64,000 bases of DNA from Candidatus Forterrea multitransposorum CG_2015-17_Forterrea_25_41 (GTDB taxonomy: Archaea > Iainarchaeota > Iainarchaeia > Iainarchaeales > CSSED10-239), in the NCBI GenBank assembly GCA_009392915.1, contig CP045477.1, positions 512,001-576,000 of the forward strand, written 5' to 3'. Position numbers and translations under genes: made by a program. The first letter of the stretch is position 1. Every line of letters starts with the position of its first letter. Below are positions 529 through 41,166 of the stretch, piece after piece. Under the pieces are notes generated by a model. The model saw nothing but the letters and a program-made list of their open reading frames with translations, ran no database searches and was not told the origin of the DNA.

Positions 529-608
529 AAAAATTAATCCTAGTTTTTATTTTTTGAAAAATTAGATGAATGCTTGACCATCGCTCTTCAACTAAGTAAA
601 GAGTTGAG

Positions 609-4561: not shown

Positions 4562-4667
4562 CTTCTATCAACTCATTTTACATATTTCTTAAGATATATG
4601 TATAAATATATAAAACAAAACATATTTATATTATTTTATATATAGATAATATTGGGTAGAATAACAT

Positions 4668-5150: not shown

Positions 5151-5157
5151 AAGATAA

Positions 5158-5901: not shown

Positions 5902-6279
5902 ATGGTTTATTAATATGATTTTTAAAAAAATTTTTAAAAGAAATAATAAACCAAAAATTAATTTTGCAAGCTATCCTAAAAAAAAGTTAATAAAAAGTAT
6001 ATTGATTCCTTTTGGGAAAAATACTTTGATGGAACTTTAAAAAGATCTATCAATAAAAGAATAGATAATAATACAATATCTAGTTATAATCCTAATGTTA
6101 AAATATTCCCTCTTTCTCCTACAGTTGCTGTTACTATTAGAAAAATTCATAATGGAAAAAGATATCTTGAATTAAATGAATATTTTAAAAATAAACTTAA
6201 GAATAAAAAACTAAAATATTCAGAAATTGTAATTTCAGATATTATTGATTATAAAATAAAAGGAAGAGATTACTTTTTA

Positions 6280-6597
6280 ATGGAAAGAATAATTCCAGGA
6301 GCATCTGTAGCAGATGTATTAAATTATAAACTGTATAATAGAACAGCATTCTTAAATAGATTTAATGATTCATTTTTAAAAATAGTTCAGAAAATGGAAA
6401 AAAAAACTTTAGATAAAATGTATATTAATTTAGAAAAAGCAGTAAAAGAACTAAAAATAACTATTAGGAAAAATGAAAAAGAACATAAAATAGATAATTC
6501 TAAAGGAAATATTATAATTATAGACTATAATCCAAATAATGGAAAATTTAAACTAGGATTAATTGACCTTGATAGCTATTTTACATTTAGTTTTTAA
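6280..6597 (+). CDS. hypothetical protein with kinase-like hinge/catalytic-loop motifs; reading frame is open upstream to 5980 with no ATG, likely joined to 5915-6037 ORF across an A8 tract
   Basis: ERIIPGASVADV, IIIDYNPNNGKFKLGLIDLD resemble atypical protein kinase (Bud32/RIO-like) motifs; upstream frame analysis done by hand. Confidence 0.35.
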   Translation: MERIIPGASVADVLNYKLYNRTAFLNRFNDSFLKIVQKMEKKTLDKMYINLEKAVKELKITIRKNEKEHKIDNSKGNIIIIDYNPNNGKFKLGLIDLDSYFTFSF

Positions 6598-6660
6598 ACA
6601 TATTATAAAAAAAAGAGCGATGCCTATATTTTACTAATTCTTTTAAAAAAAAAGTTAAAA

Positions 6661-6678
6661 AAGTAGGAAATAATGCCT
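6661..6678. repeat. 3' half of 23S rRNA processing stem (inverted repeat partner at 9749-9766)
   Basis: aagtaggaaataatgcct is the exact reverse complement of aggcattatttcctactt at 9749-9766; flanks the 23S gene as archaeal bulge-helix-bulge processing stems do. Confidence 0.7.
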
Positions 6679-6721
6679 TTTTATAGCAAAGAGCAAGATG
6701 TTTTATTTAGTTAAAAAAAAT

Positions 6722-9700: not shown

Positions 9701-9748
9701 TTAAGAATCATTTTTTTTTAACCAAATAAACTTGCTTTTGTTATTATT

Positions 9749-11797: not shown

Positions 11798-12313
11798 ATG
11801 GCAATAAAAATAGAACTTAAAGAGAATCTTACAAAAGAAGAATATGATCAAATTTCTCAGATATATGCAAAAACATTTACAATCAAAAATGAATTTACAG
11901 AAACAAATTTAAGTTTGAAAAATTGTAATAAATTGTTTGAAAAATTTCCTAAATCTTCTGCTCTTATAAAAGATAATAAAAAAACAATTGGACAAACATG
12001 GATTGTCCCTACAAATAGAAAAATAATGACTGAATTTCTTGAAAATAAAATAACAGAACAAGAAATGGTTTTAAAGTCTTTAAAAAAAGTTTCTTTAGAT
12101 AACTTTAATTGCATTTATCTTTTTTATTCTTCAATATTTCAAAAATATAGAAGACAAGGATTAATATTCAAAGCAAGAATAAAAACATTAAACCACTACA
12201 TTAAATTTAATAAAAAAATAATTCTATTTGCATGGGTATACTCTAAAGAAGGAGAAAACCTAGCAATAAAGACTGCTGAAAAATATAAACTACCTTTAAT
12301 TATTAAAAAATAA
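11798..12313 (+). CDS. hypothetical protein (start chosen at internal Met to avoid overlap; ORF is open from 11762)
   Basis: ORF 11762-12313; MAIKIEL start at 11798 follows stop of upstream gene. Confidence 0.4.
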   Translation: MAIKIELKENLTKEEYDQISQIYAKTFTIKNEFTETNLSLKNCNKLFEKFPKSSALIKDNKKTIGQTWIVPTNRKIMTEFLENKITEQEMVLKSLKKVSLDNFNCIYLFYSSIFQKYRRQGLIFKARIKTLNHYIKFNKKIILFAWVYSKEGENLAIKTAEKYKLPLIIKK

Positions 12314-18385: not shown

Positions 18386-20980
18386 TTAAGAAATTATTCT
18401 TATATTAATTTCTGATTCTTGGTTTTCTAATATTTGATGAACAGTTGCATTGATATCAGTTGTTTGTGCTTTAATAATACCAACATCAGTTAAGATAGAA
18501 TCAATGTTTGTCCTAACCTCACCACTTAAAAGATTCCATGTATTTAAAGTAGTTTGATTAATTTCTTCTAACTTTTGTGCTTGTGTTTGATCCATTATTT
18601 CAATAGCTGTTTTAATATTATAAACTTCTTGACATAATGGGCTGTTGTTAGTATCTTCATTACCACAAAAGTTTTCAACTAATGCAAGATTATCATCAAC
18701 TGATGAAAATCTGTTTCTAATTTCTCCCATGTCTTCTTGATTAATTGAATTTGAAACTAACCAATTAGTATCTTGCTTAATTGATGTTAATTGATTTGTT
18801 AAATCTTCAAGCATTAAATCAAGTTGAACATTAATATTGTTTACAACTAAATCTGTCATTAAACTTGAAAGAGAATCATTTACATCAATTATCTGTGTCT
18901 GTAATGTTTGACCTGTTGAAACAACAGTTCCATTTACAGAAATCTCTAAATTATCAAGTCTTGTTGAAAGGAAATCATTTGAATCTGAAAACTTTTGTGC
19001 AATCAATGCATTTGTATAATTAAATTGATTTGTAATTTCAGTAGATAAATTAACATTAACAGCATTTAAAAGATCTGTTAAAGAAGTTGAAACATTTGTT
19101 AAATTTGTATTTATTTCTTCACCAGTTTCTGTAACAGTTGCAGTTAATGATAAATTTACATTATCAAGTTGACTAGATAATTCTGCAAATCTTAAATCAA
19201 TCTTATCTGAAAGATCAGTATTAACTGTGTTTAAAAGATTTGAAAGAGTTGTTGTTGAAAGAGAAATATTTGTATTTATCTCTTCACCTGTCTCTTCTAA
19301 ATTTGCATTTAAACTTAAATTAACATTTGTAAGTTGATCAGATAATTGATTAAATCTTAAATCAATCTTATCTGAAAGATCTGTATTAACTGTGTTTAAA
19401 AGATTTGAAAGAGTAGTTGTTGAAAGAGAAATATTTGTATTAATCTCTTCTCCAGTCTCATCTAAATTTGCATTTAAACTTAAACTTACATTTGTAAGTT
19501 GATTAGATAATTCTGTAAACTTTAAATCAATCTTATCTGAAAGATCTGTATTAACTGTATTTAAAAGACCAGTTAAAGAAGTTGAAACATTTGTTAAATT
19601 TGTATTTATTTCTTCACCAGTTTCTTCTAAATTTGCAGTTAAACTTAAATTTACATTTTCTAAATTATTTTGAGAAGTATTAAAATCTTCTTCTAATTGA
19701 TTTAATAAATTATTATTTACTGAATTTAATAAATCTAAAATATTTGTTGTAGAAGTATTAATATTTGTATTAATCTCTTCTCCTGTAGTTGTAACTGTAC
19801 CTGTTAAATTTAAACTAACATCATTTAAATTTGCAGTTAAAGAATTATAATCAAATTCCATTTGATCTAAAAGACCAGAATTAACTGAATTTAAAAGATT
19901 AGTTAAATTTGTGTTTGTAGTATCAATATTTGTATTTATTTCTTCGCCTGTTAAAAGAACAGTTCCTGTTAAATTTAAACTAACATCATTTAAATTTTCA
20001 TTTAATGAATTTAAATCAGAATCCATTTGATCTAAAAGACCAGAATTAACTGAATTTAAAAGATTAGTTAAATTTGTGTTAGTTGCATCAATATTTGTAT
20101 TAATTTCTTCACCAGTAGATGCAATTGTTCCAGTTAAATTTAAATTTACATTATTTAAATTTGCATTTAAAGAATCAAAATTTGTATCCATTTGTTCTAA
20201 AATACCAGAATTAACATTTGATAAAAGATTTTCTAAATTTGTATTAACATTTGTTAAACTTGTTTGAATTTCTTCACCAGTTGATGAAATTGTACCTGTT
20301 AAAGAAAGATCAACACCTGAAAGATCAGTTTGTAATGTTACAATTCCTTCTTGTAATTCATTTGCAAGAGTTCCATTAACATCTGCAAGTAAATCATTTA
20401 AAGAAGTATTCATGTTTGTTAAATTTGTTGTAATATATTCTCCAGTTTCAGAAATTTGACCAGCTACAGAAACATTAACATCTGCAAGTCTTAAATCTAA
20501 ATTATCTGATTTTTCGGTTAAAACACTTATTTGTTCAAGTGCTGGATTTAAGTGAAAAGATTGTGAACTTTTTACAATTGTTGCACCACTTCTACAAGTT
20601 ACTTCTTGTTCATAAGTTCCTAAAGGAGCATCTCCTAAATAATCTGTTCTATACCAGTTTCCTGCAATATTTGATTCAGACATTGGCTGATCATCAACAA
20701 ATACAGATTTGTCTGGATGCAGTATAGTTACTCTACATTCATCTATTGGATAAGGATTACCTTTATAGTCTGATAATCTAACAATAGTTGAACCATAATC
20801 TTCTCTCCAGTATTCTGTGTGAGAAACCCATTGGAAAGAAATTTCATCTTCAACAACAGTTTTTCCACTAACATAAGCAGTTGCTAAAAAGGCAACAACA
20901 ATTAATAAAACACCTAAAATACTTAATTTTAAGTATTTATTTCTTTTTTTCTTATCTGTCATAATTACTCTTAACCTCAT
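18386..20980 (-). CDS. large repeat-containing surface (S-layer/adhesin-like) protein with about 10 tandem 53-58 aa repeats
   Basis: 864 aa; signal-anchor; repeats of consensus N(V/L)SL(N/T)...TGEEINTN...LLN(S/T)VN...; extremely rich in N-x-S/T sequons. Confidence 0.7.
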   Translation of the reverse strand: MRLRVIMTDKKKRNKYLKLSILGVLLIVVAFLATAYVSGKTVVEDEISFQWVSHTEYWREDYGSTIVRLSDYKGNPYPIDECRVTILHPDKSVFVDDQPMSESNIAGNWYRTDYLGDAPLGTYEQEVTCRSGATIVKSSQSFHLNPALEQISVLTEKSDNLDLRLADVNVSVAGQISETGEYITTNLTNMNTSLNDLLADVNGTLANELQEGIVTLQTDLSGVDLSLTGTISSTGEEIQTSLTNVNTNLENLLSNVNSGILEQMDTNFDSLNANLNNVNLNLTGTIASTGEEINTNIDATNTNLTNLLNSVNSGLLDQMDSDLNSLNENLNDVSLNLTGTVLLTGEEINTNIDTTNTNLTNLLNSVNSGLLDQMEFDYNSLTANLNDVSLNLTGTVTTTGEEINTNINTSTTNILDLLNSVNNNLLNQLEEDFNTSQNNLENVNLSLTANLEETGEEINTNLTNVSTSLTGLLNTVNTDLSDKIDLKFTELSNQLTNVSLSLNANLDETGEEINTNISLSTTTLSNLLNTVNTDLSDKIDLRFNQLSDQLTNVNLSLNANLEETGEEINTNISLSTTTLSNLLNTVNTDLSDKIDLRFAELSSQLDNVNLSLTATVTETGEEINTNLTNVSTSLTDLLNAVNVNLSTEITNQFNYTNALIAQKFSDSNDFLSTRLDNLEISVNGTVVSTGQTLQTQIIDVNDSLSSLMTDLVVNNINVQLDLMLEDLTNQLTSIKQDTNWLVSNSINQEDMGEIRNRFSSVDDNLALVENFCGNEDTNNSPLCQEVYNIKTAIEIMDQTQAQKLEEINQTTLNTWNLLSGEVRTNIDSILTDVGIIKAQTTDINATVHQILENQESEINIRIIS
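19030..20300. repeat. tandem DNA repeats (units about 160-174 bp) encoding the surface-protein repeats
   Basis: Near-identical 174-bp units visible e.g. 19140-19660 (ttgtatttatttcttcaccagt...aaatcaatcttatctgaaagatc recurring). Confidence 0.7.
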
Positions 20981-28526: not shown

Positions 28527-28622
28527 TTTATTAATTTCTAAAAAAGATTATGTTTTTAAAGTTATAGTATATATATTATTTATATATAGTCTATTTTTTT
28601 AAAAACTAGATTAACATATAAA

Positions 28623-28695
28623 GCCTCTATAGCTCAGTGGCTAGAGCGGCAGTCTTGTAAACTGTAGGTCGAGGGTTCAAATCCCTCTAGAGGCT
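28623..28695 (+). tRNA. tRNA-Thr (anticodon TGT)
   Basis: Manual cloverleaf: acceptor gcctcta/tagaggc, D arm gctc/gagc, anticodon stem gcagt/actgt, loop ctTGTaa, T arm gaggg-ttcaaat-ccctc, discriminator T. Confidence 0.9.
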
Positions 28696-28705
28696 TCTTT
28701 TTATT
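28692..28705. repeat. target-site duplication, left copy (ggcttctttttatt), overlapping last 4 nt of tRNA-Thr
   Basis: Perfect 14-bp direct repeat with 37074-37087, immediately outside the TIRs. Confidence 0.65.
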
Positions 28706-28769
28706 GGGTTATAGCTATTTCACTTTTTTTGTACGCTTTTTAATCTTTTCTACACTAATAAATATTTAT
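28706..28769. repeat. casposon left terminal inverted repeat
   Basis: gggttatagctatttcactttttttgtacgc vs reverse complement of right end gggttatatatatctaattatttttgtacgt: 26/33 identical, further similarity ctaata-aatatttat with indels. Confidence 0.6.
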
Positions 28770-29487
28770 GGATAATAAGTATTTAAAATATATAAATAAT
28801 TTTGTTGAAACTGATTTTAAAATTCCAAATGAATTTAAAAATAAAAATATGTTTGGATCACTAAAAAACTTTCATAAGGGATTAGATCCAGAAACTATAT
28901 TACGAGGACTAATTCAATTAATACCTGCAGGTGGATTGATCGAAAAATATTTGTTTGCTAATAAAGATAAAAATGAAATAAAAAAAATTTATTATTTTTT
29001 GTATTGTTATTATATACAAATAAATAAAATAATTGAGGATAATAAAAATAAAATTGATCAAAAATATTTAAAAACAGAACAATTTTATAATTTATTTAAA
29101 CAATGTATTGAAAAAATAAGATTTGAAACTGAAATTAGTAAAATTCAATTATTTAAGAATTTTCTAATTAATGCAAGTATTTTAAATAATAAAAATATAG
29201 ATAAAGAATATATTTTATCAAAATTAGATAATATTTCTTTAAATCATTTTGAAATAATAGACTGGTATTATAAATATAACTACATTATAATTACAGGGAT
29301 TGGTTCCGAATACGATCAAAATAAAAAAAAAATTAAATTAAAATATTCTTATTTTGATTCTTATGAAAATGATTTAGCAACAATTGGTTTTTTAAATAAA
29401 ATTAATGGATTAGGAAGTGTTGAACGATATTATTTAACAAAATTAGGACTTGATTTTTATAATTTTATAAAATATGATGATTTGTAA
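28768..29487 (+). CDS. hypothetical protein (casposon cargo)
   Basis: 239 aa ORF starting inside the left TIR. Confidence 0.45.
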   Translation: MDNKYLKYINNFVETDFKIPNEFKNKNMFGSLKNFHKGLDPETILRGLIQLIPAGGLIEKYLFANKDKNEIKKIYYFLYCYYIQINKIIEDNKNKIDQKYLKTEQFYNLFKQCIEKIRFETEISKIQLFKNFLINASILNNKNIDKEYILSKLDNISLNHFEIIDWYYKYNYIIITGIGSEYDQNKKKIKLKYSYFDSYENDLATIGFLNKINGLGSVERYYLTKLGLDFYNFIKYDDL

Positions 29488-29527
29488 AAATAATATCTAT
29501 GATTTTCATAAATTATTGTTTTAATTT

Positions 29528-29986
29528 TTAATAGTCTGGATTATACTTTTTAATTAATTTAGATTTTATTAATTCAATTATAAATAAAGCAATAAAAAAA
29601 TAAATTATTAATTCTATAGTAAAACTATCTCGTAAATTTATGTCGTTAAAATTGGCAAGTATTTTTGATATTAATTGTATTGATGGAATAATAAATAAAG
29701 AAAATACAATTGTAATAAATAGATTTTTATTTTTTGAACTTATAAAGCTAATATTTTTTAGCGAAAATGTTTTATATATTCTTTTAAATAAAAAAACTAG
29801 TATGCAAAGATACATAATAAAAATAATAATAATAGCAATAACTTCTTTAAATTCTGGAAATAAAACCGGAAACTTTTCATTTAAAATTATATGAATCATT
29901 GCTAAATAATATAATCCAAAATAAGATAATAAAATAATAGGTTCAAAAAAATTCTTTTTAAATTTGATTAAATTTTCTAATTTCAC
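29528..29986 (-). CDS. hypothetical membrane protein (casposon cargo)
   Basis: 152 aa, 4 hydrophobic helices. Confidence 0.4.
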   Translation of the reverse strand: MKLENLIKFKKNFFEPIILLSYFGLYYLAMIHIILNEKFPVLFPEFKEVIAIIIIFIMYLCILVFLFKRIYKTFSLKNISFISSKNKNLFITIVFSLFIIPSIQLISKILANFNDINLRDSFTIELIIYFFIALFIIELIKSKLIKKYNPDY

Positions 29987-29990
29987 ATTT

Positions 29991-31172
29991 TCACCAATTA
30001 TTCACAATTTCTTCAATATTTTTATTCATACTAAAAGGTTTATTTACTCTTGCATTCTTTTTAAGATAAAATAATGTGCCTTTTGATAAACCTTTATTCT
30101 TCCAATCAACATAAGATATATTTAATATCTTATTTCTAATTTCTTCTGTATCTTTCCTTTCTAGTTTATGTTTAGGTTTTGTAAAATCTATGTTTTTCGA
30201 TTTTTTCTTTAAAAAGTTAGATAGTTCTCTTGTTTTTAATAATATTAAATAATGAAAGTTTACTTTATCTCCTTTATATAATATCTTATGATTAAAATGT
30301 TTATTAATACTTTCTAAAACCTTTTTAGCTCCAGAAGATCTTAACCTTAAATTATAGTTTTCTGTTCTTATAAAATCCTTATCATTAATCAAATTATTCT
30401 CAATTAAATCTAAAACTGCAAGATCAACTAAATATCTAAATGGTTCTTGCATATCATAAGCTAAACTATTCTTACCATTTTGCTTTTCATGTAAAAAACC
30501 TATGTGTCTATCAAGACCAATAGAATTTATTGATTTTAAAATCTCTGCTTCTAATATAGCATATCCATAATTAAGCATACAATTAAATTGATCTCCAGTA
30601 CCTTTAGCTTCTTTCTTATATTCTCTACCTTCAAATTCATATTTTTTAGGTATAATCTTAATAAATTGTTTCCAATAATGAGAAGCAATTCTACCTTCTG
30701 ATAATAAAATATCTTGAATTGTATTTGATTTCTTAAATAATTCTAGCTCTTTACTAAAATTATTATCAATTACTGAATATCTTTCTTTTAGATAATCTAA
30801 AACTAGTTGTTGTTTTTCAAATTTAGCTTCAACAAACTTTTTAGCTAAATTTAATCTTTGAATTGAATAATCATAAGCTTTATATTGTTCAAACTTAGCT
30901 TCTGAACCTATATTCTTATATGGTAACATACTAGTAAGTAGTTGTCCATCCCAATTTAGAAAGCTAACTTGAACATAGTGTTTCATTAACCATCTAATAG
31001 CATCTAAAGTTAATTCTCCCGACCTACCATATATTACTATATGATCAATATTCATTTTTCTTGGAGAGTATACTAATGTTTCATTAACTAAATCAGTTTG
31101 ATGTTTAATTATTAGTTTTGCTTTATCTACTCTTAGGTTAATTCCATAACCATCTAATAACAATATTTTCAT
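29991..31172 (-). CDS. cas1: Cas1 family integrase (casposase) with about 85-aa C-terminal extension
   Basis: 393 aa; Cas1 catalytic core LLSEGRIASHYW (Glu), NCMLNYGYAILEAEIL, GLDRHIGFLH (His), SLAYDMQEPFRYLVDLAVLDLI (acidic); no adjacent cas2. Confidence 0.85.
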   Translation of the reverse strand: MKILLLDGYGINLRVDKAKLIIKHQTDLVNETLVYSPRKMNIDHIVIYGRSGELTLDAIRWLMKHYVQVSFLNWDGQLLTSMLPYKNIGSEAKFEQYKAYDYSIQRLNLAKKFVEAKFEKQQLVLDYLKERYSVIDNNFSKELELFKKSNTIQDILLSEGRIASHYWKQFIKIIPKKYEFEGREYKKEAKGTGDQFNCMLNYGYAILEAEILKSINSIGLDRHIGFLHEKQNGKNSLAYDMQEPFRYLVDLAVLDLIENNLINDKDFIRTENYNLRLRSSGAKKVLESINKHFNHKILYKGDKVNFHYLILLKTRELSNFLKKKSKNIDFTKPKHKLERKDTEEIRNKILNISYVDWKNKGLSKGTLFYLKKNARVNKPFSMNKNIEEIVNNW

Positions 31173-32002
31173 AAAATCTCACTTTCGGATTTTTTAATAT
31201 TTAATAATTTATTAACATTGTATCTTATTTGTAGAATTAAATCAGTTTGTCTTGTTAAACCATTAAAATTAAATTTTTGTTGTAATTTATATAAGTCTTC
31301 TCTATGATTATGTATGTAATTAGTGATATATTTAACAGAATATGTATGTTTAACATAATCTTCATTTTCATTTATTAAATCATCTTCCAATTGTATTAAT
31401 ACTTGTTTATCATCATAATGTGCTAATAAATAAAGTATCCATCTTTTTAGATTTGAAAATTCACTATCATATTTATTATATTTTTCCAGTAATTTTTTTA
31501 ATATAGTTCTAAATTCAGTTTGATTTATAACTTCTATATTATTTTCTAAAATTAATTGAACTAGTGTGTAACCAACAGAATTAATTAATTCTTTATCATT
31601 TATATTTAATTTAAGTATATTAATAAGATCATCAACGTTTTTAGCATAAATTAAATCATCTCTATATAAACTAATATCTCTTAATATTAACATTTTATTT
31701 TTTTCCGATTTTTCTTTACTTAACTCCTCTAATCTATTATTAATATATTGAATAATTTCTTTATTTTGTTTTAATCCAATGTACACAATCCTATTATCTT
31801 TTTCTATAATATCATAAACAGAATATTCGTCTTTAGTAATTTTAATTAATTCTTTACTATCTATAAAATGTTGTATATGTCTAACTGCTGTTGGTTTACT
31901 ACATTTATAATTATCCATTATAAAATTAATTAAATCAGTTTTAGGAACGAAAATTTTATCTCTTATAAATTTACTTATTTTAGGAATATCAATTTTAACC
32001 AT
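31169..32002 (-). CDS. hypothetical protein with N-terminal winged-HTH-like region, co-transcribed with cas1
   Basis: 277 aa; stop overlaps cas1 start; FIMDNYKCSKPTAVRHIQHFIDSKELIKI resembles wHTH. Confidence 0.5.
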   Translation of the reverse strand: MVKIDIPKISKFIRDKIFVPKTDLINFIMDNYKCSKPTAVRHIQHFIDSKELIKITKDEYSVYDIIEKDNRIVYIGLKQNKEIIQYINNRLEELSKEKSEKNKMLILRDISLYRDDLIYAKNVDDLINILKLNINDKELINSVGYTLVQLILENNIEVINQTEFRTILKKLLEKYNKYDSEFSNLKRWILYLLAHYDDKQVLIQLEDDLINENEDYVKHTYSVKYITNYIHNHREDLYKLQQKFNFNGLTRQTDLILQIRYNVNKLLNIKKSESEIL

Positions 32003-32066
32003 AAAAAAACCTTATCAAATTATGTATCAACTTATAAATATTATATATTACAATAAGTTTAAATAC

Positions 32067-32110
32067 ATATCATTTTAGATATCAAAATGGATATTAAATA
32101 TAAATATCAT
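32067..32110. promoter_or_regulatory. candidate operator: imperfect palindrome atatcattttaGATATCaaaatggatat plus third half-site atatcatt, in divergent promoter region of casposon
   Basis: Read directly; located between cas1 operon (leftward) and RHH-HNH-polB operon (rightward). Confidence 0.35.
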
Positions 32111-32153
32111 TCTTTTTCGTCATAAGTTATCTATTGACTTAAAAGGTGATGTT

Positions 32154-32294
32154 ATGTGTAGAGTTATATTTACTCTTCCCAAATATATAAAACAAAAATT
32201 AGAAAAAATAGCAAAAGAAAAAAATACAACACAATCTGAATTGATTAGAGCCTCTCTTTATTTGTATTTAGATAAGGAGAGTGATAATAAATGA
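32154..32294 (+). CDS. ribbon-helix-helix (CopG/Arc/MetJ-like) DNA-binding protein
   Basis: 46 aa MCRVIFTLPKYIKQKLEKIAKEKNTTQSELIRASLYLYL: beta-strand + two helices RHH pattern; stop overlaps next start (ATGA); below ORF-track size cutoff. Confidence 0.6.
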   Translation: MCRVIFTLPKYIKQKLEKIAKEKNTTQSELIRASLYLYLDKESDNK

Positions 32295-32923
32295 TATTCT
32301 CAAAAGCACATAAAACATATACTAGTTGGTTAAAATCAGCTAGTAAAACAAGATATACATTTAAAATCATTAGAAAACATTCAATATTTCCTAACTATAA
32401 CTTAAAACAATTAAGAAATACTAAACTAAGTGGTTATTTTCTTAATAAAACAAATTGGAATAATTTAACTAATATTCAAAAAGCTAATAGAAAACAAGTA
32501 ACAAACGCACTTAGACAAATAAGAAAGGGCTATTCATTAAAAGATGTTGTTAAAATTAATGGAATTAACAAAGAAACAATACAAAAACACTTAGGAAATT
32601 ATCTATTCAAAAGAAAAGGCAAATGGCAAGTAAGAAAAACAGATAGATTACAACTAAAACTAATGATTTTTGAAAAAAGAATGTGTGCAAGAACAATAAT
32701 TACTACAAATTCTAAAGATAGACAATTAATTGGTAAATATTTTGCTAATGTTAAACTAGCTCTTAGAGAAAATAACCCTTATTATCTAAAACAATTCAAA
32801 AATAAGAAAATAATTGATGCTTATGGAAAAGCACATCATTTTGAAACAGATTTAGATAGATTAAAAATGTGTGAAGAAGCTATAGAAGAGCCAGAATATT
32901 TGGAAATATATAGAAATAGATGA
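32291..32923 (+). CDS. hypothetical basic protein (casposon)
   Basis: 210 aa ORF in operon between RHH and HNH. Confidence 0.45.
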   Translation: MIFSKAHKTYTSWLKSASKTRYTFKIIRKHSIFPNYNLKQLRNTKLSGYFLNKTNWNNLTNIQKANRKQVTNALRQIRKGYSLKDVVKINGINKETIQKHLGNYLFKRKGKWQVRKTDRLQLKLMIFEKRMCARTIITTNSKDRQLIGKYFANVKLALRENNPYYLKQFKNKKIIDAYGKAHHFETDLDRLKMCEEAIEEPEYLEIYRNR

Positions 32924-32927
32924 TATT

Positions 32928-33248
32928 ATGACTGAACAAATAGGCAGTGGTCTTTCTTGTTATCTTTGTGGAGAAGACCATCCAGCAGTAATTAAGAAAT
33001 TAGAATTACATCATATTGATGGTAAAGCTAATTCAAATACCACTGTTGCTATTTGTCAAAATTGTCATAATAAAATTACTTGTGAACAAAATAAACTATC
33101 TCCTAAATTGAGATCTAATAAAAATAAAGATTCTTTGATCAAGTTAGGTTATCAATTATTAAGTCACGGGGCTTTATTGAAGACTTTAGGAGAAACACAA
33201 ATAAAAATTGGAAAAGAGATGATTGAATATGAAAAAAATAATACTTAG
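32928..33248 (+). CDS. HNH endonuclease
   Basis: CYLCGEDH...LELHHIDGKANSNTTVAICQNCHNKIT: C-x2-C, HH, N, C-x2-C-H HNH signature; 106 aa. Confidence 0.7.
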   Translation: MTEQIGSGLSCYLCGEDHPAVIKKLELHHIDGKANSNTTVAICQNCHNKITCEQNKLSPKLRSNKNKDSLIKLGYQLLSHGALLKTLGETQIKIGKEMIEYEKNNT

Positions 33249-34791
33249 AGCATTTGCTAATGTTAATACAAATAAGAAAGACTATACTACAGAAATTAAA
33301 AAACATAGAAGAGTTTTAGTATTTGATACTGAAACAACTACTGATGAATATCAAAACCTTAAGATAGGGTTCTTTCAGGTTTATCAAGATAATATTAAGG
33401 TAAATGAAGGTTTATTCTATATAAATGACTTACCTAATGAAGATATTAAGGTTCTACAAAAATATTCTAGAACCTACCCTACCTCACTATATACCTTAGA
33501 TAAATTTAAAGATATATTCTATAAAGAAGTGTATAATAGAGGTACGTTATGTATTGGTTATAATCTAGCTTTTGATATATCTAGAATAGCTCAAAAATAT
33601 GGATATTCTAGAAAATATAATAAGGGTGGGTTTACATTTACTTTATCTAAGGATATAAACAAACCTCCTATAATTATTAAAAAATTAGGTGATGCTAATA
33701 CTTTTAAATTTCAAAGAAATATTGCTAATAAAGGTAAATCTTACAAAAGTGGTTATTTTTTAGATGTTCAAACAATATCTAAAATAATATTAGATAAGAG
33801 AAGGATTAGTTTAGATAAATCCTGTGAAATATTAAATACAACAACTAAAAAAATGAAAAATATCACACATGGAAAAATAACTAAACTTTATATTGATTAT
33901 TTAATTACTGATGTGAAGTCTACATTTGAAGTATATTTAGAATTATTAAAAGAATTTAAAAAATATGATATTGATATTCCATTAGAAAAAACATATAGTT
34001 CAGCATCTCTAGGTAAACAAGCATTAGCTCAATTAGGAATAAAATCTTTTTTTAATTGTAATCCGAATTTTAGTAAAGAATTAATCGGAATTATAATGTC
34101 TACTTATTATGGTGGAAGATGTGAATGTGTTTATAGAAAAAAACCAGTTAAAATTGATTATCTTGATTTTACTTCAATGTATCCTACTATTACCTTATTA
34201 TATGGTATTTGGGACTTTATAATTGCAGAACAAATAACTACTGAAGATGTTACTGATGAAATAAAAAATTTAGTTGAGAATATAGATTTAGAAAGTTTAA
34301 AAAATAAAGAATTATTTAGACAATTTAATGTACTTGTGAAAATTAAACCAAACAAAGATTTATTGCCAATTAGATTTGATTATAAAAACAAAAATGAAAA
34401 TAATAACTTAGGATTAAATTATCTTACAAGTGATAAAGAATTATGGTATACTTTACCGGATATAATTTCATCAAAAATACTAACTGGAAAAGCACCTCAA
34501 ATACTTGAAGCTATTAGATTTAAACCCAATGGAATACAAAGTGATCTTAAAAAATCTAAAATTGTTGGAGTAAATATAAACCCTAAGAAAGAAAATTTAA
34601 TTAAAATTTGTGTAGATAAAAGACAAGAAATTAAAAAAGAGATAAAAGAGTTAAAAAAAGATGATTTAGAATCTAAAAGACTTGATGGTATTCAGAGAGC
34701 CCTTAAAATTTTAGTTAATACTTTTAGTTATGGTATATTTATTGAATTAAATCCTAAAGAGGTAAAAAATAACATTAAATTTATGGTTTAA
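33223..34791 (+). CDS. polB: family B DNA polymerase (protein-primed type), N-terminal part: 3'-5' exonuclease + Pol motifs A and B; interrupted by frameshift
   Basis: ExoI VLVFDTETT, ExoII GYNLAFDISRI, ExoIII YIDYLITD, motif A IDYLDFTSMYPTI, motif B KILVNTFSYGIF. Confidence 0.8.
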   Translation: MNMKKIILRAFANVNTNKKDYTTEIKKHRRVLVFDTETTTDEYQNLKIGFFQVYQDNIKVNEGLFYINDLPNEDIKVLQKYSRTYPTSLYTLDKFKDIFYKEVYNRGTLCIGYNLAFDISRIAQKYGYSRKYNKGGFTFTLSKDINKPPIIIKKLGDANTFKFQRNIANKGKSYKSGYFLDVQTISKIILDKRRISLDKSCEILNTTTKKMKNITHGKITKLYIDYLITDVKSTFEVYLELLKEFKKYDIDIPLEKTYSSASLGKQALAQLGIKSFFNCNPNFSKELIGIIMSTYYGGRCECVYRKKPVKIDYLDFTSMYPTITLLYGIWDFIIAEQITTEDVTDEIKNLVENIDLESLKNKELFRQFNVLVKIKPNKDLLPIRFDYKNKNENNNLGLNYLTSDKELWYTLPDIISSKILTGKAPQILEAIRFKPNGIQSDLKKSKIVGVNINPKKENLIKICVDKRQEIKKEIKELKKDDLESKRLDGIQRALKILVNTFSYGIFIELNPKEVKNNIKFMV

Positions 34792-35804
34792 ATGAATTTT
34801 CTTCTGATGTAAAACATATAGAAAATATTGGTAAATATTTCAATCCTATATTAGGCACGATAATAACCTCAGGAGCAAGATTATTTTTAGCTATAGCTCA
34901 ATCAATTACAGAAAAACAAGGGTATAAGCACGTTTATATGGATACAGACAGTATTTTAGTTCCTATTGAGGTATCTAGTAAGGTAATAAATTATTTTAAA
35001 CCTTTAAATCCTTATTCTTCAGATATAGCTTTACTTAAAAAAGAGAAAGAAGATGTATGTTTCTATGGTATTTGTAGTAAAAGATATTGTTTATATAATT
35101 TTAAAAATAAAAAAATTGAACTTATGGATTATAAATTACATGGTTTAGGGCATCTTATTAATCCTTGGAGTAATAAAAAGGATTGGCATAAGGATGTTTG
35201 GTTAGATATATTGAATTTACATTATAATTATATTACATCAGCAGAAATTTATGAAAAATATTCTGTAGTTTATGGAATATCTAGATTTACAGTATCTACT
35301 CCACATTTAATTAAGAGATTTAATACAATTAATAATGATAGACCTTATGAAGAACAAATTAAACCATCTAATTTTTTTTATTTAGGGTTTTCTGTAAATA
35401 AGAATAATTCTGTAAAACCATTAGTGCCTTTTGGAGGAAATCCTCAAAAGTTGGTTTATGATGAATTTATTGATTATAATACTGGAAAGGTAATGCAAGG
35501 TTGTGAGTATTGGAAACCTTTAGGAAATACAATCTTAGAGTATATTGATCATTCAGAGTATAAGTTAGATGGGGGTATTGGGCAATTAGAAAGAAAACAT
35601 ATTGTTTGTAATGATATTCAGTATATAGGAAAAGAAGCAAACAATATTGATGAAGAAGCTATATCTTCTTTTAAACCTATTGAGTATAAGAACAATAATC
35701 AGTTTAAGAAGGATCTTAGGTCATTGAATAATAAGGAGTTGATGCAAAAGTACCATTTCAAGACTAGGAGTCACATCAAGTATTGGAGAGATAAATTATT
35801 CTAA
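34779..35804 (+). CDS. polB: family B DNA polymerase, C-terminal part in -1 frame (KxY-region ITSGAR, motif C YMDTDS, thumb)
   Basis: Hand translation of frame upstream of 34938 gives IYGLNEFSSDVKHIENIGKYFNPILGTIITSGARLFLAIAQ...KHVYMDTDSILVP, continuous with PolB after motif B. Confidence 0.75.
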   Translation: MYGLNEFSSDVKHIENIGKYFNPILGTIITSGARLFLAIAQSITEKQGYKHVYMDTDSILVPIEVSSKVINYFKPLNPYSSDIALLKKEKEDVCFYGICSKRYCLYNFKNKKIELMDYKLHGLGHLINPWSNKKDWHKDVWLDILNLHYNYITSAEIYEKYSVVYGISRFTVSTPHLIKRFNTINNDRPYEEQIKPSNFFYLGFSVNKNNSVKPLVPFGGNPQKLVYDEFIDYNTGKVMQGCEYWKPLGNTILEYIDHSEYKLDGGIGQLERKHIVCNDIQYIGKEANNIDEEAISSFKPIEYKNNNQFKKDLRSLNNKELMQKYHFKTRSHIKYWRDKLF

Positions 35805-37013
35805 CGATTCATATTCATAGCAATGTTTTTTTTTAGTATTTTTAATAACTAATCTTTTATCCATATCTTTATAAACTTCAGGAGGCATAAAAGTATTTTT
35901 ACCAAAAGTTACAAAATTATATTTAGTCATATCCTTAATATCTGTTTTTAAAACACCTATAATAAATGATAATTTTTGTTTAGTTTTATAATATAAAGTC
36001 CAACAAGTAAATTTATTTTTAATTAAAATATCATCTTTTTTACCATTTGAAAAAGCGCAATAAATACCAAAATCAAAATTATCCCAACCTAAAAATCTTT
36101 GGACATAATTTTTATTAGATTTTTTAAATTCAATGTATTTCTTAAATATTTCAATACCAAAATTACATTTTTGAAATGAATTTAATTTTAAAATTTGTTC
36201 AATAAATAAATAATCATCTTGCGATTCACACTTTTCTAATTGAAATATTAAGTCATCTATAAATACACTATATTTTTCATTATTCTTTTTAATATCTAGT
36301 TGATTTTTTAAAAACTCTTTATAATTAAATTCATCAAATAATATTAAACTCGCATCAACCCACTTTTTTGTAAGTTCAGCAATACCGTCTTTATTTTGTA
36401 AGTAAATACCTAATATATTTCTTTCTGAATCTAATAAATTATTTTTATTTATGATTAGTTCTCTTTTATCTAAATAATCTATGAAGTCAACAGGTGTGTG
36501 TATATAATTTATAATTTCATTTATTTCTGTATAATTAAAAATATGTGGCATTATTTTAATATTTGATGATTCTTTTTGTGTAATTGATAACAATCCTTTA
36601 TTTGCTAATTCATAATTTCCATTATTAATAACAACACCATAGATTTTCTTAATTTTTTTAAAATTACTATTTGTTAATTTTATATTTTCATTAAATTTAT
36701 TTTTAATATTCACATGAATTTTATTTTCTTTGATTCTATTTATACTTGCACGTAATTGTTTTGTTGGATTGTATATAGCTTTTTGTATATATCTTTTATC
36801 GATAATATCATGTATTTTTGTTTTTATTTGAATAATTATAGCAACATCATTTAATAAAATAATGAAATCGCATAACTCTTTATTATTTTCTAATTGTGGA
36901 TTTGGAAAAACAAAATATTTATGAAAAATAGGTTGTAAAATATTATTATATATTTTTTCTTCAAAAGAATCTTTAAAGTTATAATTATTATTCATAAATA
37001 AATAATATTGCAA
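35796..37013 (-). CDS. hypothetical protein with possible N-terminal PD-(D/E)xK nuclease-like motif (casposon, adjacent to right TIR)
   Basis: 405 aa; ELCDFIILLNDVAIIIQIKTK resembles D-x(n)-E-x-K core; tentative. Confidence 0.4.
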   Translation of the reverse strand: MQYYLFMNNNYNFKDSFEEKIYNNILQPIFHKYFVFPNPQLENNKELCDFIILLNDVAIIIQIKTKIHDIIDKRYIQKAIYNPTKQLRASINRIKENKIHVNIKNKFNENIKLTNSNFKKIKKIYGVVINNGNYELANKGLLSITQKESSNIKIMPHIFNYTEINEIINYIHTPVDFIDYLDKRELIINKNNLLDSERNILGIYLQNKDGIAELTKKWVDASLILFDEFNYKEFLKNQLDIKKNNEKYSVFIDDLIFQLEKCESQDDYLFIEQILKLNSFQKCNFGIEIFKKYIEFKKSNKNYVQRFLGWDNFDFGIYCAFSNGKKDDILIKNKFTCWTLYYKTKQKLSFIIGVLKTDIKDMTKYNFVTFGKNTFMPPEVYKDMDKRLVIKNTKKKHCYEYESLE

Positions 37014-37016
37014 AAT

Positions 37017-37073
37017 ATGTATAAATATTACTATTAGAACAAACGTACAAAAATAATTAGATATATATAACCC
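37017..37073. repeat. casposon right terminal inverted repeat
   Basis: See left TIR alignment. Confidence 0.6.
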
Positions 37074-37087
37074 GGCTTCTTTTTATT
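37074..37087. repeat. target-site duplication, right copy (ggcttctttttatt)
   Basis: Perfect 14-bp direct repeat of 28692-28705. Confidence 0.65.
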
Positions 37088-37126
37088 ATTTTATTTTCAC
37101 TCTTTGAAAGTTTTTTATTCTTTTCT

Positions 37127-37423
37127 ATGAATAAAGATTACAACAATTACATTATTTCAGTAATAGGAGGATTAACAACTGGTTTTATAATTATTATAAT
37201 TCCAGAATTATTAAAAGTTATATTTGATAAAAATATAAAACTATTTATTAAAATTATTTTTCTAATTGGGATGATATTATTTTTAATATGGAGTTTATTG
37301 TTTGTAGGAAATAAATTCTTTTTAAAACAAAAAAAACGTACTAAAGAATTAAACAAATTAATAATAACAAGTATTATATTTATTCTTATTAATATTATAT
37401 TAGAGTGCTTAATAAATCTGTAA
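37127..37423 (+). CDS. hypothetical small membrane protein
   Basis: 98 aa, 3 hydrophobic helices. Confidence 0.35.
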   Translation: MNKDYNNYIISVIGGLTTGFIIIIIPELLKVIFDKNIKLFIKIIFLIGMILFLIWSLLFVGNKFFLKQKKRTKELNKLIITSIIFILINIILECLINL

Positions 37424-37508
37424 TTATTATTTTTTTATTAAATTAACATAAATTATAAAAAAACATTTTTATTTAAAAAAATAATTTTTATATTTAATAA
37501 AATAAAAA

Positions 37509-38387
37509 TTAATGATAATGCACAGATAACGTTAAAACTCCCGCTTCTTTATATTCACCACGATAATTTTTTACATGCCCATGATAATGATATTTAAAAT
37601 TACATTTCTTTTTTAAATCATATATATTAATTGATCCTAAATTGTAAAACGTAATACCAGGACAGTGAGATACAAAAATTGTTTTATTACTAAAATAAGT
37701 TCTAAAAAAATCAATTCGTTTTTTATCCATTCTCAAACTATTATCAATTGAAGAAATATATTTTTCTTTACCAGATTTATCAGAATTAACTCCTGTTAAA
37801 TATAAATCTTTATTTAAATATATTAGTTCTAAATCCATAGGATTATAAAAATTAGGGTTATTTATAATTTTATAAATTATTGGAATATTATTAAAATAAT
37901 TATTTAATTCCATTAAATCTCCATTAAAAAATGAACCCATAATATATTTTCTTTGAGGAAAAGCCAATATACTATCGTGATTTCCAGAATAAAATAATAT
38001 TCTTATGTCTTTTTTAACACAATAATTTTCAAAATCAATAAAATTATCAATCTCATTTTTATTTTTAGAATAAATTAATTCAGATAGTAAATTACCAAAA
38101 TCTTCTGAAGTAATATTAAGTAAATTATTTTTATTTTTGTTTAAATAATCATACACTTGAAATTCATTCCAATAAGATTTTAAAAAAGAAAAAATATCTC
38201 CTAAAAACACAACTAATTTAATTTTTTTAGCACATAAAATTTTAATTAACTTTTTTTTTATTATTAAAGAAAATCTTTCAATATCTGATATAAAATAAAT
38301 TTCATCTAATTCAATATCTTTATTAAATAAACGATGAAAATCAAATTTTATATTAATTAAATTAGGCACTATTTTTTTATCCTTCAA
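37509..38387 (-). CDS. calcineurin-like metallophosphoesterase
   Basis: FLGDIFS (GD motif), SGNHDS (GNHD), VSHCPG, YHGHVKN (GHxH-like); 292 aa. Confidence 0.55.
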   Translation of the reverse strand: MKDKKIVPNLINIKFDFHRLFNKDIELDEIYFISDIERFSLIIKKKLIKILCAKKIKLVVFLGDIFSFLKSYWNEFQVYDYLNKNKNNLLNITSEDFGNLLSELIYSKNKNEIDNFIDFENYCVKKDIRILFYSGNHDSILAFPQRKYIMGSFFNGDLMELNNYFNNIPIIYKIINNPNFYNPMDLELIYLNKDLYLTGVNSDKSGKEKYISSIDNSLRMDKKRIDFFRTYFSNKTIFVSHCPGITFYNLGSINIYDLKKKCNFKYHYHGHVKNYRGEYKEAGVLTLSVHYH

Positions 38388-38438
38388 TATTTATCTCCCC
38401 TATATACTTATTCACATTAAACAATATATTCAAAAATA

Positions 38439-39047
38439 TTATTTATAAAGTTTTATTCCTTCCAAAAGATCTATTCCAATAGATTTTTTTACTGCAATTT
38501 CCCTTATATATGAAACTATAGATTTATCTAAACAATCCCAATATCCAAATTTATCTATTAAATAAGCAATTAATTGAAAATACATATATTCAAATCTATA
38601 ATCTTCCTCATAATATAATGGGAAATGAATAAAATTATTTCTTTGATTTCCAATTAAATTAAATAAACTTTCGATTAATTCTTTATTTGAATCTTTATTA
38701 TTAATAATATATGAAAATAACTTAAATTTTAATTTACCTAAAGTTCTATTTTTAATTGGTATTTGTAAATAATTTATTGGATCTTTATCAATTAATATTA
38801 TTTTAACTAATCCTTCAACACAAATATTTAACAAAATAATATGAGAAATTTCCTCTGTAGTAGAATCTTCTTTTAATTTTTTATAATTATTTAACAAAAA
38901 TTTAAATTGCTTAAATAAATTAGCTATAAATTTTTGTTTTTTTTCATCTACATCAACTTTATCTAATAATTTACATTCCATAATTAAAGAGAGTTTTTGT
39001 AACTCTTTTAAACGATTATTTAATTCTTTAACCATAATTTCACACAT
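38439..39047 (-). CDS. hypothetical protein
   Basis: 202 aa ORF in very AT-rich island. Confidence 0.4.
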   Translation of the reverse strand: MCEIMVKELNNRLKELQKLSLIMECKLLDKVDVDEKKQKFIANLFKQFKFLLNNYKKLKEDSTTEEISHIILLNICVEGLVKIILIDKDPINYLQIPIKNRTLGKLKFKLFSYIINNKDSNKELIESLFNLIGNQRNNFIHFPLYYEEDYRFEYMYFQLIAYLIDKFGYWDCLDKSIVSYIREIAVKKSIGIDLLEGIKLYK

Positions 39048-39065
39048 TTATTTTATAAATTTAAT

Positions 39066-39935
39066 TTATTTAATTAAATCAGATATTTTAACACTTAACA
39101 CATAACCAATTCTTGAAAGGTCTTTTGTTTCAATATTAATTACTCTTAAATTATTGTTTTCTAAAATCTTATTTTTATTTGCATATCTTTTTATTTCTTT
39201 ATTTCTTTTTTCTTCATTTAATGAATTTAATCCTCCATTAAATTCAATATAAATATCTTCTTTAGGTAAATAAAAATCAATTAATCTATATTCTGCTTTA
39301 TCACCTTTTAAAAAATCAACATAATATTCAGGAATATACCTAATTTTTAATTCTTGCAGAGAAAGTGCAACTAATTTTTCTCCTTCACTCCTAGTTTTCA
39401 AATAATTTTCTTTATTAATAGTTTTTAATTTTTTTTTATTAATATCTAATAACCAATTTACATACCATTGATAGGTATCCCATTGATCCCATTTTTCTCC
39501 TGCATAAAAATGTTTAGATTCATTATCTTTTCTATAATAAAATCTTCTCCAATCATGAGGAGTAGTTTTTATAATAAATGTAGTTTGTTTATCTTTTTTA
39601 ATATAAACATCCTCTTTATTAACTACTAAATGTTTCATATGATTAGGAAACATTTTTTCAGAACCTGGTTTTTCAATATTTGGATCATATCCACAAGCTA
39701 AATGAAAATGAATAGTAACTTTATTTATTTTTATATTTGCACAAAATTTTTTATCATCAATAATTACACAGTATGGTTCTGAAGGAAACCAATCTTTAAC
39801 CATATCTTGAAAAATTTCGGATGCTTTAGAATATTGACAATCTTTCTTAAATTTATCATATTTTTTTTTATCATACCTAGCATTAATTAATCTTTCTGAA
39901 TTTGTTAATTTGTAATCCTTTAATAAATAACTCAT
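39066..39935 (-). CDS. protein with C-terminal DUF559/Vsr-like (PD-(D/E)xK) endonuclease domain
   Basis: SEGEKLVALSLQ...YRLIDFYLPKEDIYIEFNGG matches the DUF559/very-short-patch-repair-like endonuclease core pattern. Confidence 0.5.
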   Translation of the reverse strand: MSYLLKDYKLTNSERLINARYDKKKYDKFKKDCQYSKASEIFQDMVKDWFPSEPYCVIIDDKKFCANIKINKVTIHFHLACGYDPNIEKPGSEKMFPNHMKHLVVNKEDVYIKKDKQTTFIIKTTPHDWRRFYYRKDNESKHFYAGEKWDQWDTYQWYVNWLLDINKKKLKTINKENYLKTRSEGEKLVALSLQELKIRYIPEYYVDFLKGDKAEYRLIDFYLPKEDIYIEFNGGLNSLNEEKRNKEIKRYANKNKILENNNLRVINIETKDLSRIGYVLSVKISDLIK

Positions 39936-39945
39936 AATAACCCTC

Positions 39946-40515
39946 TTATCTTTTTTTAAAATTTCTTTTTCTTGAATGATTAAATTTAGAATTCTTATTA
40001 AAGCGACTAGATAAATTAGAAGGCTGTCTTTTAAAAGATCTAAATTTATTTACTTTTCTCTTTAAATAATGTGTAATTGTATAATATTTAATAAAATTTA
40101 AAATAATTATTGCAATTAAAATATAAATTAATAATTCTAAAATTAAAGAAAATAATGAAAAATCACTTAAATTAAGTATTATTTTTACAAATAAACCAAT
40201 AATAGGAATTAATAATAAACTAATATAAATTTCAATTAAAAAAAATCTATTTTTCGAATCTAATAAATACAGTCCACGTAACAGATTTTTGATAAAACTA
40301 ATAATTGTTTTAATAATTACAATAAATATAACTATTAAAGAAATAGAAAAATAAATTGTTTTTTTTATTTCACTAAGATTTGAAGATTTTATTAAAATAT
40401 TAATTAAAATAAAAAAAATCAATGTTGAGCAATAATATAAAAGGTTATTTTTATTTTCATTCCAAAAACGATGCCAAATATCTTTATGTAAAAAACTTTT
40501 ATGTTTTTTAATCAT
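39946..40515 (-). CDS. hypothetical membrane protein with highly basic C-terminal tail
   Basis: 189 aa; 4 TM; tail KRKVNKFRSFKRQPSNLSSRFNKNSKFNHSRKRNFKKR. Confidence 0.4.
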   Translation of the reverse strand: MIKKHKSFLHKDIWHRFWNENKNNLLYYCSTLIFFILINILIKSSNLSEIKKTIYFSISLIVIFIVIIKTIISFIKNLLRGLYLLDSKNRFFLIEIYISLLLIPIIGLFVKIILNLSDFSLFSLILELLIYILIAIIILNFIKYYTITHYLKRKVNKFRSFKRQPSNLSSRFNKNSKFNHSRKRNFKKR

Positions 40516-40793
40516 ATATATTAAATTAATCCATTTATTTATAAATCTATTTAATTATATAAATTATTAAAATTAATATAAAATTTATTAATTAATTTAA
40601 TTTTATTTATAAGCTAATATATATTTCGAAAATCAGTATAATATTTATAAAAATACTACAAAAACTATATATTCTATAATAAATAACATTAAATCTCTTT
40701 TTAGGTATTAATAAAAATAAGAAAATAAATTATTTTTTTAAAGAAGGAATAATTTATTTTTCAAATTATTTATTTACATTTAGTATGTTTATT

Positions 40794-40964
40794 TTATTTT
40801 TTATGAGAAAATAAACCCCAAACTAAAAATATTACAAACAATACTACAAATATATAGAATAACACTAATGCAATGTTAGTTGCAACATCTGAAATTCTTC
40901 CAAAACCAAAAATTGCAGAAATTATTGCTATTACTAAAAATATAATTGCCCATCTAAGAAACAT
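40794..40964 (-). CDS. UPF0391/DUF1328 family small membrane protein
   Basis: 56 aa MFLRWAIIFLVIAIISAIFGFGRISDVATNIALVLFYIFVVLFVIFLVWGLFSHKK, hand-translated; matches DUF1328 consensus (M..RWAIIFL..ALIA..FGFGGIAG); below ORF-track cutoff. Confidence 0.55.
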   Translation of the reverse strand: MFLRWAIIFLVIAIISAIFGFGRISDVATNIALVLFYIFVVLFVIFLVWGLFSHKK

Positions 40965-41166
40965 ATAACATCACCTTCATATATTATAGTTGAAATATCT
41001 TATAAAGAGGTGTAATTAGCAGTTATACCTTAAATTACTAATATAAATGAATTAATAAATATAATTACTGAACATTTATTTATAAAAAACCTCTAAATAA
41101 AAATGTTTTGTTACTTAAATATATTATAACTAATTTTTTAAAAAAATAATTAATAAAGAAACACAT

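Follow-up and report, generated by a model that had tools for sequence, protein, structure and literature searches.

A probable one-base deletion splits the DNA polymerase gene of a casposon from an Iainarchaeota archaeon

Why does the family B DNA polymerase (PolB) gene of a casposon extend over two reading frames? The element in question occupies positions 28706-37073 (8,368 bp) of a 64,000-nucleotide stretch of the genome of Candidatus Forterrea multitransposorum (contig CP045477.1, positions 512,001 to 576,000), which is referred to here as the window and to which all coordinates apply unless another contig is named. A first-pass annotation had described the split gene and offered three explanations, decay of the element, a sequencing error and programmed frameshifting. 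Our comparisons favour decay. Most likely, an authentic and recent one-base deletion truncates the casposon polymerase after motif B and has left the element unable to replicate itself.

The N-terminal frame of polB lies on the plus strand at 33223-34791 and encodes 522 amino acids (aa) from a TTG codon or 520 aa from the ATG at 33229. It covers the exonuclease motifs Exo I-III, motif A and motif B. This open reading frame (ORF, frame 1) ends in ...FSYGIFIELNPKEVKNNIKFMV (...NIKFMV), followed by the stop codon TAA at 34789-34791. The C-terminal frame (34779-35804, plus strand, 341 codons) is the -1 frame, or frame 0; it is closed by a TAA at 34776-34778, opens at 34779 and runs to the stop codon at 35802-35804. 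It reads IYGLNEFSSDVKHIENIGKYFNPILGTIITSGARLF...YMDTDS...SKRY and contributes ITSGAR, motif C, the KxY motif, the thumb and the C-terminal tail. Since the two frames overlap by just 13 nt (34779-34791), the change of frame must fall there. The earliest ATG, GTG or TTG of the -1 frame is the ATG at 34938, which encodes the M of YMDTDS, and gene callers give only a 288-aa C-terminal piece that starts at this codon. In the order of the protein the motifs are Exo I-III, motif A (DFTSMYPT), motif B (KILVNTFSYG), the frameshift, ITSGAR, motif C (YMDTDS) and KxY (SKRY). The coordinates and peptides given for both frames in the first-pass annotation were re-read and are correct.

If A34779 is read twice, the two frames merge into a family B polymerase of 860 aa with the junction peptide NNIKIYGLNEFSSDVK; a continuous ORF of about this length had been predicted for the repaired gene. 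Over 93-100% of its own length the fused protein aligns with proteins of 853-903 aa that are each encoded by a single ORF, with E values down to 0, a continuation far beyond chance. It is 61% identical to P0002, a protein from a JGI metagenome, 60% identical to P0003 from 'Candidatus (I)ainarchaeum sp.' and 48-54% identical to PolBs of Methanolobus, Methanococcoides, Methanohalophilus and Methanosarcina. In a multiple alignment the junction is free of gaps, and exactly ten residues lie between IELN and (Y/N/F)GL in all sequences. The comparison with intact orthologous PolBs, which had been proposed as a check, thus gave colinear proteins without a gap at the junction and relatives that are uninterrupted there. 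The C-terminal 341 aa on their own retrieved 104 cluster representatives at E ≤ 1e-30, aligned to residues ~510-870 of proteins of ~890 aa. The C-terminal tail of the PolB in the window is shorter than in Methanosarcinales and is likewise shortened in P0002 and P0003.

The PolB in the window, split or fused, was not recognized directly by Pfam or NCBIfam, and its assignment to family B is based on its homologues (precomputed Pfam PF03175/PF00136) and on a profile search against the PDB. The family profile was colinear with solved archaeal PolBs at motif A, motif B and the ITxxGR/motif C/KxY region (5mdn, E=1.1e-9). Together with the alignment of homologues, this match bears out the placement of the split between motif B and the ITxxGR/motif C region. 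A scan of the fused PolB against genome and metagenome contig collections returned no relatives; those described here were obtained from a protein database and from contig look-ups.

The lesion maps to 34777-34782 on the plus strand, where the window reads AAATTT and the relatives read AAA-ATA/ATT-T. The codons are CAA AAA ATA TAT GGT TTA AAT GAA TTT in L002, the contig of P0003, GAA ATT TAT GGT TTG in L017 and ATT AAA -TT TAT GGT TTA AAT GAA TTT in the window. Because the ten-residue spacing between IELN and YGL is kept only when one base is restored, a single base is missing. Most simply, this would be an A from AAAATT: an ancestral ...AAA ATT TAT GGT... would have become ...AAA TT TAT GGT..., with the run of four A now reduced to three. 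The restored base yields K-I-Y-G-L-N-E-F, identical to P0003.

A single base in a short A/T run belongs to an error class typical of some sequencing platforms, and a homopolymer miscall at this site would mean that the true gene is one ORF of 858-860 aa. Against this, the same split recurs across independent assemblies and archives in at least 24 of the contigs read, among them SPAdes/Illumina-style contigs, the JGI samples 3300008255, 3300007986 and 3300007988, the ENA entry ERZ17986944 and four NCBI metagenome-assembled genomes (MAGs). The exact 520-aa N-terminal product was found on 39 contigs (88 index blocks) from NCBI, JGI, ENA and Logan, the longest of them 840 kb, and is deposited under four NCBI MAG accessions (NCP71962.1, NCP79137.1, NCP97917.1 and NCQ06904.1); the 288-aa C-terminal ORF was found on 38 contigs. 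The split is also present in the contigs L001, L004, L005 and L006, which come from four different samples and match the window at 99.99-100% identity. L001 (JGI sample 3300008255) differs from the window at one position in 7,085 nt, L004 (ERZ17986944, a SPAdes-style contig) is identical across 21.5 kb, and L005 (sample 3300007986) and L006 (sample 3300007988) show two mismatches and one mismatch, respectively. Runs of three or four bases are not error-prone in short-read data. A search of 5.8 billion protein clusters revealed no intact full-length allele of more than 62% identity, and no intact version is on record. With the same split ORFs in dozens of independent assemblies, a sequencing or assembly error is effectively excluded.

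If the lesion is real, translation may still cross it. Programmed or tolerated -1 ribosomal frameshifting would take place on UAAAUUU(A), with tRNA-Lys slipping from AAA to UAA and/or tRNA-Phe from UUU to AUU, and would yield a minor 860-aa PolB beside a major exonuclease-only product, as in dnaX or IS3-type transposases. Several features agree with such recoding. Re-reading A34779 restores exactly the homologous K-I-Y-G-L-N-E-F, the C-terminal frame is intact and undegraded, the split allele is the sole one observed in dozens of assemblies, and the A/T-rich stretch contains the letters of the heptamer AAAUUUA, which resembles the retroviral heptamer of Rous sarcoma virus (RSV) gag-pol (A-AAU-UUA). 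However, the phase of AAATTTA at 34777-34783 is off by one base relative to the incoming frame. The heptamer in phase is T_AAA_TTT, which does not conform to X_XXY_YYZ, and a -1 slip on TAAATTT would leave both tRNAs mispaired at the first position of the codon. No notable stimulatory RNA structure, neither hairpin nor pseudoknot, was found downstream, where programmed sites have one at a distance of 5-9 nt: the best local hairpin had -5.1 kcal/mol (z=-0.87), and the fold of 131 nt (z=-1.74) was equalled by 8 of 200 shuffled sequences. The site has no rare codon, and an in-frame stop follows three codons beyond the AAA-TTT slip site. Runs of three A and three T are also far too short for transcriptional slippage.

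Conservation points in the same direction. The genes of the three closest relatives, P0002 (L003), P0003 (L002) and P0114, are uninterrupted at the junction site, which makes the frameshift specific to this lineage and argues against a conserved signal. The shift is absent from these three and from all 120 listed homologues, and it is common only to the copies that are 99.99-100% identical to the window. Established programmed -1 sites, such as those of bacterial dnaX, the IS1 and IS3 transposases, the Sulfolobus solfataricus fucA1 gene (A-AAA-AAT) and RSV gag-pol, share with this locus a -1 change in an A/T-rich stretch that joins the halves of an enzyme, in a mobile element, as well as the letters AAAUUUA; here, in contrast, the heptamer has the wrong phase, a stimulatory structure is lacking and the relatives show no conservation. 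Programmed frameshifting, the third option of the first-pass annotation, is thus unsupported by slip site, RNA structure or conservation, and we consider it unlikely.

A weaker form of recoding, in which non-canonical -1 slippage on UAAAUUU bypasses the gap at low efficiency, would produce mostly exonuclease-only protein and little full-length polymerase. This appears very unlikely from the sequence; if true, Archaea would have just one earlier report of a programmed -1 frameshift, and neither a casposon nor a DPANN organism would have provided one before. Transcriptional slippage at the run of six A at 34764-34769 was considered and rejected, since stop codons follow in either case (a TAA right after an added A; the TGA at 34793-34795 after a removed A).

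A split polymerase gene can also encode a split enzyme. The PolB of Methanothermobacter is said to have been described by Kelman et al. in 1999 as naturally divided into PolB1 and PolB2 between motif B and motif C, and a functional two-subunit polymerase would here be assembled from the separately made 520-aa and C-terminal products. The break in the window falls between the same two motifs, within a casposon-specific loop of ~30 aa from motif B to ITxxGR, a connection that is short in solved PolBs, and gene callers annotate two ORFs. Yet a C-terminal protein started at the M of YMDTDS would lose ~53 residues, the conserved FNPxxxxxITSGAR segment and the motif C tyrosine among them, and no Shine-Dalgarno-like sequence precedes the ATG at 34938. 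The relatives are unsplit. Unlike in Methanothermobacter, a complete C-terminal subunit has no start codon here, and the 13-nt overlap of the frames is as expected from a simple indel. A two-subunit enzyme is therefore highly improbable.

The proteins P0200 and P0181, which start within a few residues of the junction, raised the possibility of a recurrent functional split at this site. This was rejected because the lesions differ. P0200 (L016) results from a frameshift inside motif B and a GTG chosen as start by the gene caller, and P0181 (L017), on a contig of 1.9 kb, is the remnant of a gene truncated at its 5' end. L016, an ENA contig of 1.05 Mb, carries at 4476-7143 of its own sequence the polB of a distantly related casposon, split into 495 and 380 aa with the shift between KVIANS and ..SYG. 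The split in L016 may be an error, as the contig name suggests a long-read assembly, or another pseudogene.

We return to the one-base deletion and its consequences. Translation in the original frame would stop 12 nt past the lesion and give a protein of 520-522 aa with the 3'-5' exonuclease motifs and motifs A and B. Devoid of ITxxGR, the catalytic aspartates of motif C, KxY and the thumb, this product is predicted to be incapable of DNA polymerisation, and from the motif content we infer that polymerase activity and self-replication have been lost. The strain would then have fixed a casposon copy that is very young and either non-autonomous or dead.

The age of the insertion fits into this picture. 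In L007 and L010, whose flanks are ~95% identical to those of the window, the tRNA-Thr site is empty and synteny resumes at window position 41058, which indicates that the casposon was recently acquired. A perfect 14-bp target site duplication (TSD) and recognisable terminal inverted repeats (TIRs) give the element, apart from the deletion, the appearance of a recent acquisition. In a relative-rate test, the distances of both halves of PolB to outgroups equal those of the intact P0002 and P0003. At otherwise invariant columns PolB deviates at 4 of 111 positions in the N-terminal and 2 of 76 in the C-terminal part, where P0002 deviates at 2 of 76 and P0003 at 3 of 77. This lack of excess change implies that the deletion is very recent or tolerated. 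Population variants add a further hint. In JGI sample 3300007986 (L005) codon Ser325 of Cas1 is changed from TCG to an amber TAG at window position 30199, which cuts Cas1 to 324 aa and removes its C-terminal extension; sample 3300008255 has Ser502 of PolB replaced by Gly within motif B, and sample 3300007988 carries T393N in the 405-aa ORF. All three single-nucleotide polymorphisms in the casposon change a protein, and the single one in the flanks is intergenic. These variants are suggestive of relaxed constraint or ongoing decay.

Three observations weigh against inactivation by deletion. The frameshifted form is the sole form of the element on record, as no sample contained an intact allele. 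The C-terminal frame of 341 codons is fully open at a guanine plus cytosine (GC) content of ~24% and no more diverged than in intact relatives; such an undegraded frame would fit a recent deletion and, equally, recoded expression. Finally, the signal of relaxed selection in the variants consists of three changes and carries no statistical weight.

The identity of the element as a casposon, already proposed in the first-pass annotation, is borne out by its Cas1, TIRs, 14-bp TSD and tRNA target. The target is a tRNA-Thr gene (anticodon TGT) at 28622-28697 on the plus strand (ARAGORN; Rfam tRNA, 75.5 bits), whose 3' end overlaps the left TSD. The 14-bp sequence GGCTTCTTTTTATT is present at 28692-28705, where it comprises the last 6 nt of the tRNA gene and 8 further nt, and as an exact direct repeat (14/14) at 37074-37087. 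Directly inside the TSDs lie imperfect TIRs of ~32 nt with ~75% identity: GGGTTATAGCTATTTCACTTTTTTTGTACGCT at 28706-28737 (plus strand) aligns with the reverse complement, GGGTTATATATATCTAATTATTTTTGTACGTT, of 37042-37073 (minus strand). The borders were located by a k-mer search limited to words with at least three G/C; a generic inverted-repeat search gave 998 pairs, which were AT-rich noise.

The Cas1 casposase (393 aa, 29991-31172, minus strand) is recognized by Pfam Cas_Cas1 (2.3e-62, residues 6-290) and TIGR00287 (2.5e-60). Past the Cas1 domain it has a C-terminal extension of ~70 residues with a weak match to the C-terminal helix-turn-helix (HTH) region of the family-2 PolB P0022 (BLASTP E=0.008, 20 aa). 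None of the CRISPR families of Rfam was found in the window, in which no dedicated search for CRISPR repeats was run. A conserved casposon gene of 277 aa follows at 31169-32002 (minus strand). Homologues with 49-55% identity (tblastn) lie at the equivalent position in L002 and L003, and the gene occupies the place of the HTH/HEAT protein of family-2 casposons; its product gave no significant Pfam match. The 210-aa protein encoded at 32291-32923 (plus strand), also conserved in L002 and L003, is possibly an HTH protein, with a weak match to Pfam HTH_40 below the curated cutoff (E=0.0022). Between this gene and polB lies an ORF for a small HNH-like nuclease (106 aa, 32928-33248, plus strand), which is found directly upstream of polB in L002 and L003 too. 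Its translation shows CxxC...HH...N...CxxCH, and its match to Pfam HNH was sub-threshold (E=0.5, profile positions 1-45 of 47). The minus-strand cargo ORF at 35796-37013 (405 aa) has no Pfam match and was not found in L002 or L003. Two more products of the element are a protein of 239 aa and a membrane-like protein of 152 aa.

With a Cas1 casposase, a family B polymerase gene, albeit disrupted, and TIRs with a flanking TSD, the element has the hallmarks of a casposon. As expected of a family-2 PolB of the RNA-primed-like type, its polymerase has its best named matches in PolBs of Methanosarcina and, at 49-54% identity, of Methanolobus psychrophilus R15 and Methanococcoides burtonii, all of them organisms in which family-2 casposons have been described, and the element appears to be family-2-like. 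Family-2 casposons span 6-16 kb, share a core of Cas1, PolB, HNH and two HTH proteins and have TIRs of 31-59 bp; they insert in either orientation at intergenic sites or 3'-distal tRNA ends and generate 14-bp TSDs (PMC4046053, PMC4779613).

Related elements at the 3' end of tRNA-Thr(TGT) form a group in Iainarchaeota, with members at 28692-37087 in the window, at ~4900-4945 in L002 and at 112-160 and 8480-8540 in L003. The TIR core GGG(T/A)TATA...TTTTTGTACG is common to the window and to the casposons at L002, L003 and L014. The window and L003 both have the complete 14-bp TSD; of the L002 element, a single end can be seen. The casposon in L002 has the opposite orientation to those in the window and L003. 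Between the window and L003, Cas1 is 89% identical, PolB 57-64% and the HNH and HTH proteins 59-65%, so that the casposon appears mosaic, possibly by module exchange or by very unequal rates. In L014, a 'Candidatus Iainarchaeum archaeon' MAG, the casposon-type TIR GGGTTATATGTATTTCTATTTTTTTGTACGC stands directly after tRNA-Thr (11912-11960). The next 9 kb contain neither a right TIR nor Cas1 or PolB, and host synteny then follows; this arrangement looks like a solo-TIR scar left by a casposon that was lost. In L003, the right TSD is followed immediately, at 8540-8560, by the TIR-like start GGGATATAGTT, possibly the border of another casposon in tandem that is cut by the contig end.

The window has ~22% GC and contains an archaeal 23S rRNA gene. 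An FtsX permease encoded in the flank is 96% identical to the copy of a 'Candidatus (I)ainarchaeum sp.' MAG and 77-78% identical to those of Iainarchaeum/Diapherotrites MAGs, which identifies the host as an archaeon of the Iainarchaeota (DPANN). The 23S rRNA gene (6722-9705) has 38-39% GC in this genome of 22% GC, and no 16S or 5S gene lies within the 64-kb window. From the right TSD to a conserved gene of the Zip-family transporters (Pfam PF02535) extends a strain-specific segment of ~4 kb (37088-41057) with ORFs of 98, 292, 202, 289, 189 and 56 aa; L007 and L010, which are 95% identical, have in its place 1-1.7 kb with other small genes (DUF3368 and others). By this comparison the tRNA-Thr locus is a variable island beyond the casposon itself. 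Elsewhere, an 864-aa ORF (18386-20980, minus strand) contains at 19099-20303 about seven tandem repeats of 165 nt (55 aa) with 82-84% identity, and the arrangement of the copies varies between strains. An Rfam match to 'Plastid-ycf2' at 608-681 (plus strand) is antisense to a tRNA-Met and scores exactly at threshold; it is almost certainly spurious.

The frameshift itself matters little. It shows a self-synthesizing transposon at an early stage of inactivation, as is already known from casposons. What modest value it has comes from the setting: a clearly bounded family-2-like casposon of Iainarchaeota that belongs to a small group with tRNA-Thr(TGT) as its target, in either orientation. The empty sites in sister strains and the apparent solo-TIR scar speak for recent gain and loss of casposons in a lineage for which the papers searched hold no casposon reports; casposons with a tRNA-Thr target or with DPANN hosts were unmentioned in these papers, and literature hits for the sample and locus-tag identifiers were irrelevant. 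For annotation, the 520-aa and 288-aa 'hypothetical proteins' in public MAGs correspond in all likelihood to one frameshifted polB pseudogene and should be merged and flagged.

Compared with the family-2 casposons of Euryarchaeota (MetPsy-C1, MetBur-C1 to C3 and those of Methanosarcina; Krupovic et al. 2014, 2016), the element agrees in gene set and gene order, with a Cas1 that bears a C-terminal extension, a PolB of ~860-900 aa, a small HNH-type protein whose gene immediately precedes polB and two more small proteins that are conserved. It also agrees in its size of 8.4 kb, its imperfect TIRs of ~32 bp, a 14-bp TSD that covers the last bases of the tRNA gene without damage to it and the use of both orientations at the same target. 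It differs in its host, an archaeon of the Iainarchaeota/Diapherotrites (DPANN) with ~22% GC, in its target tRNA-Thr(TGT) and in the shorter C-terminal tail of PolB, and the matches behind its HNH and HTH assignments are weak. Casposon copies that have been inactivated are already on record, some with internal stops in PolB (PMC4046053, PMC4779613). In MetBur-C3 with its amber mutations and in the tandem Methanosarcina copies with multiple internal stops in polB, a core gene has likewise been hit by point lesions, with TIRs and TSDs still recognisable. In contrast to those copies, the casposon in the window is solitary and not the second of a tandem pair, and it shows one deleted base and no other degeneration, which places it at an earlier stage of decay than they are.

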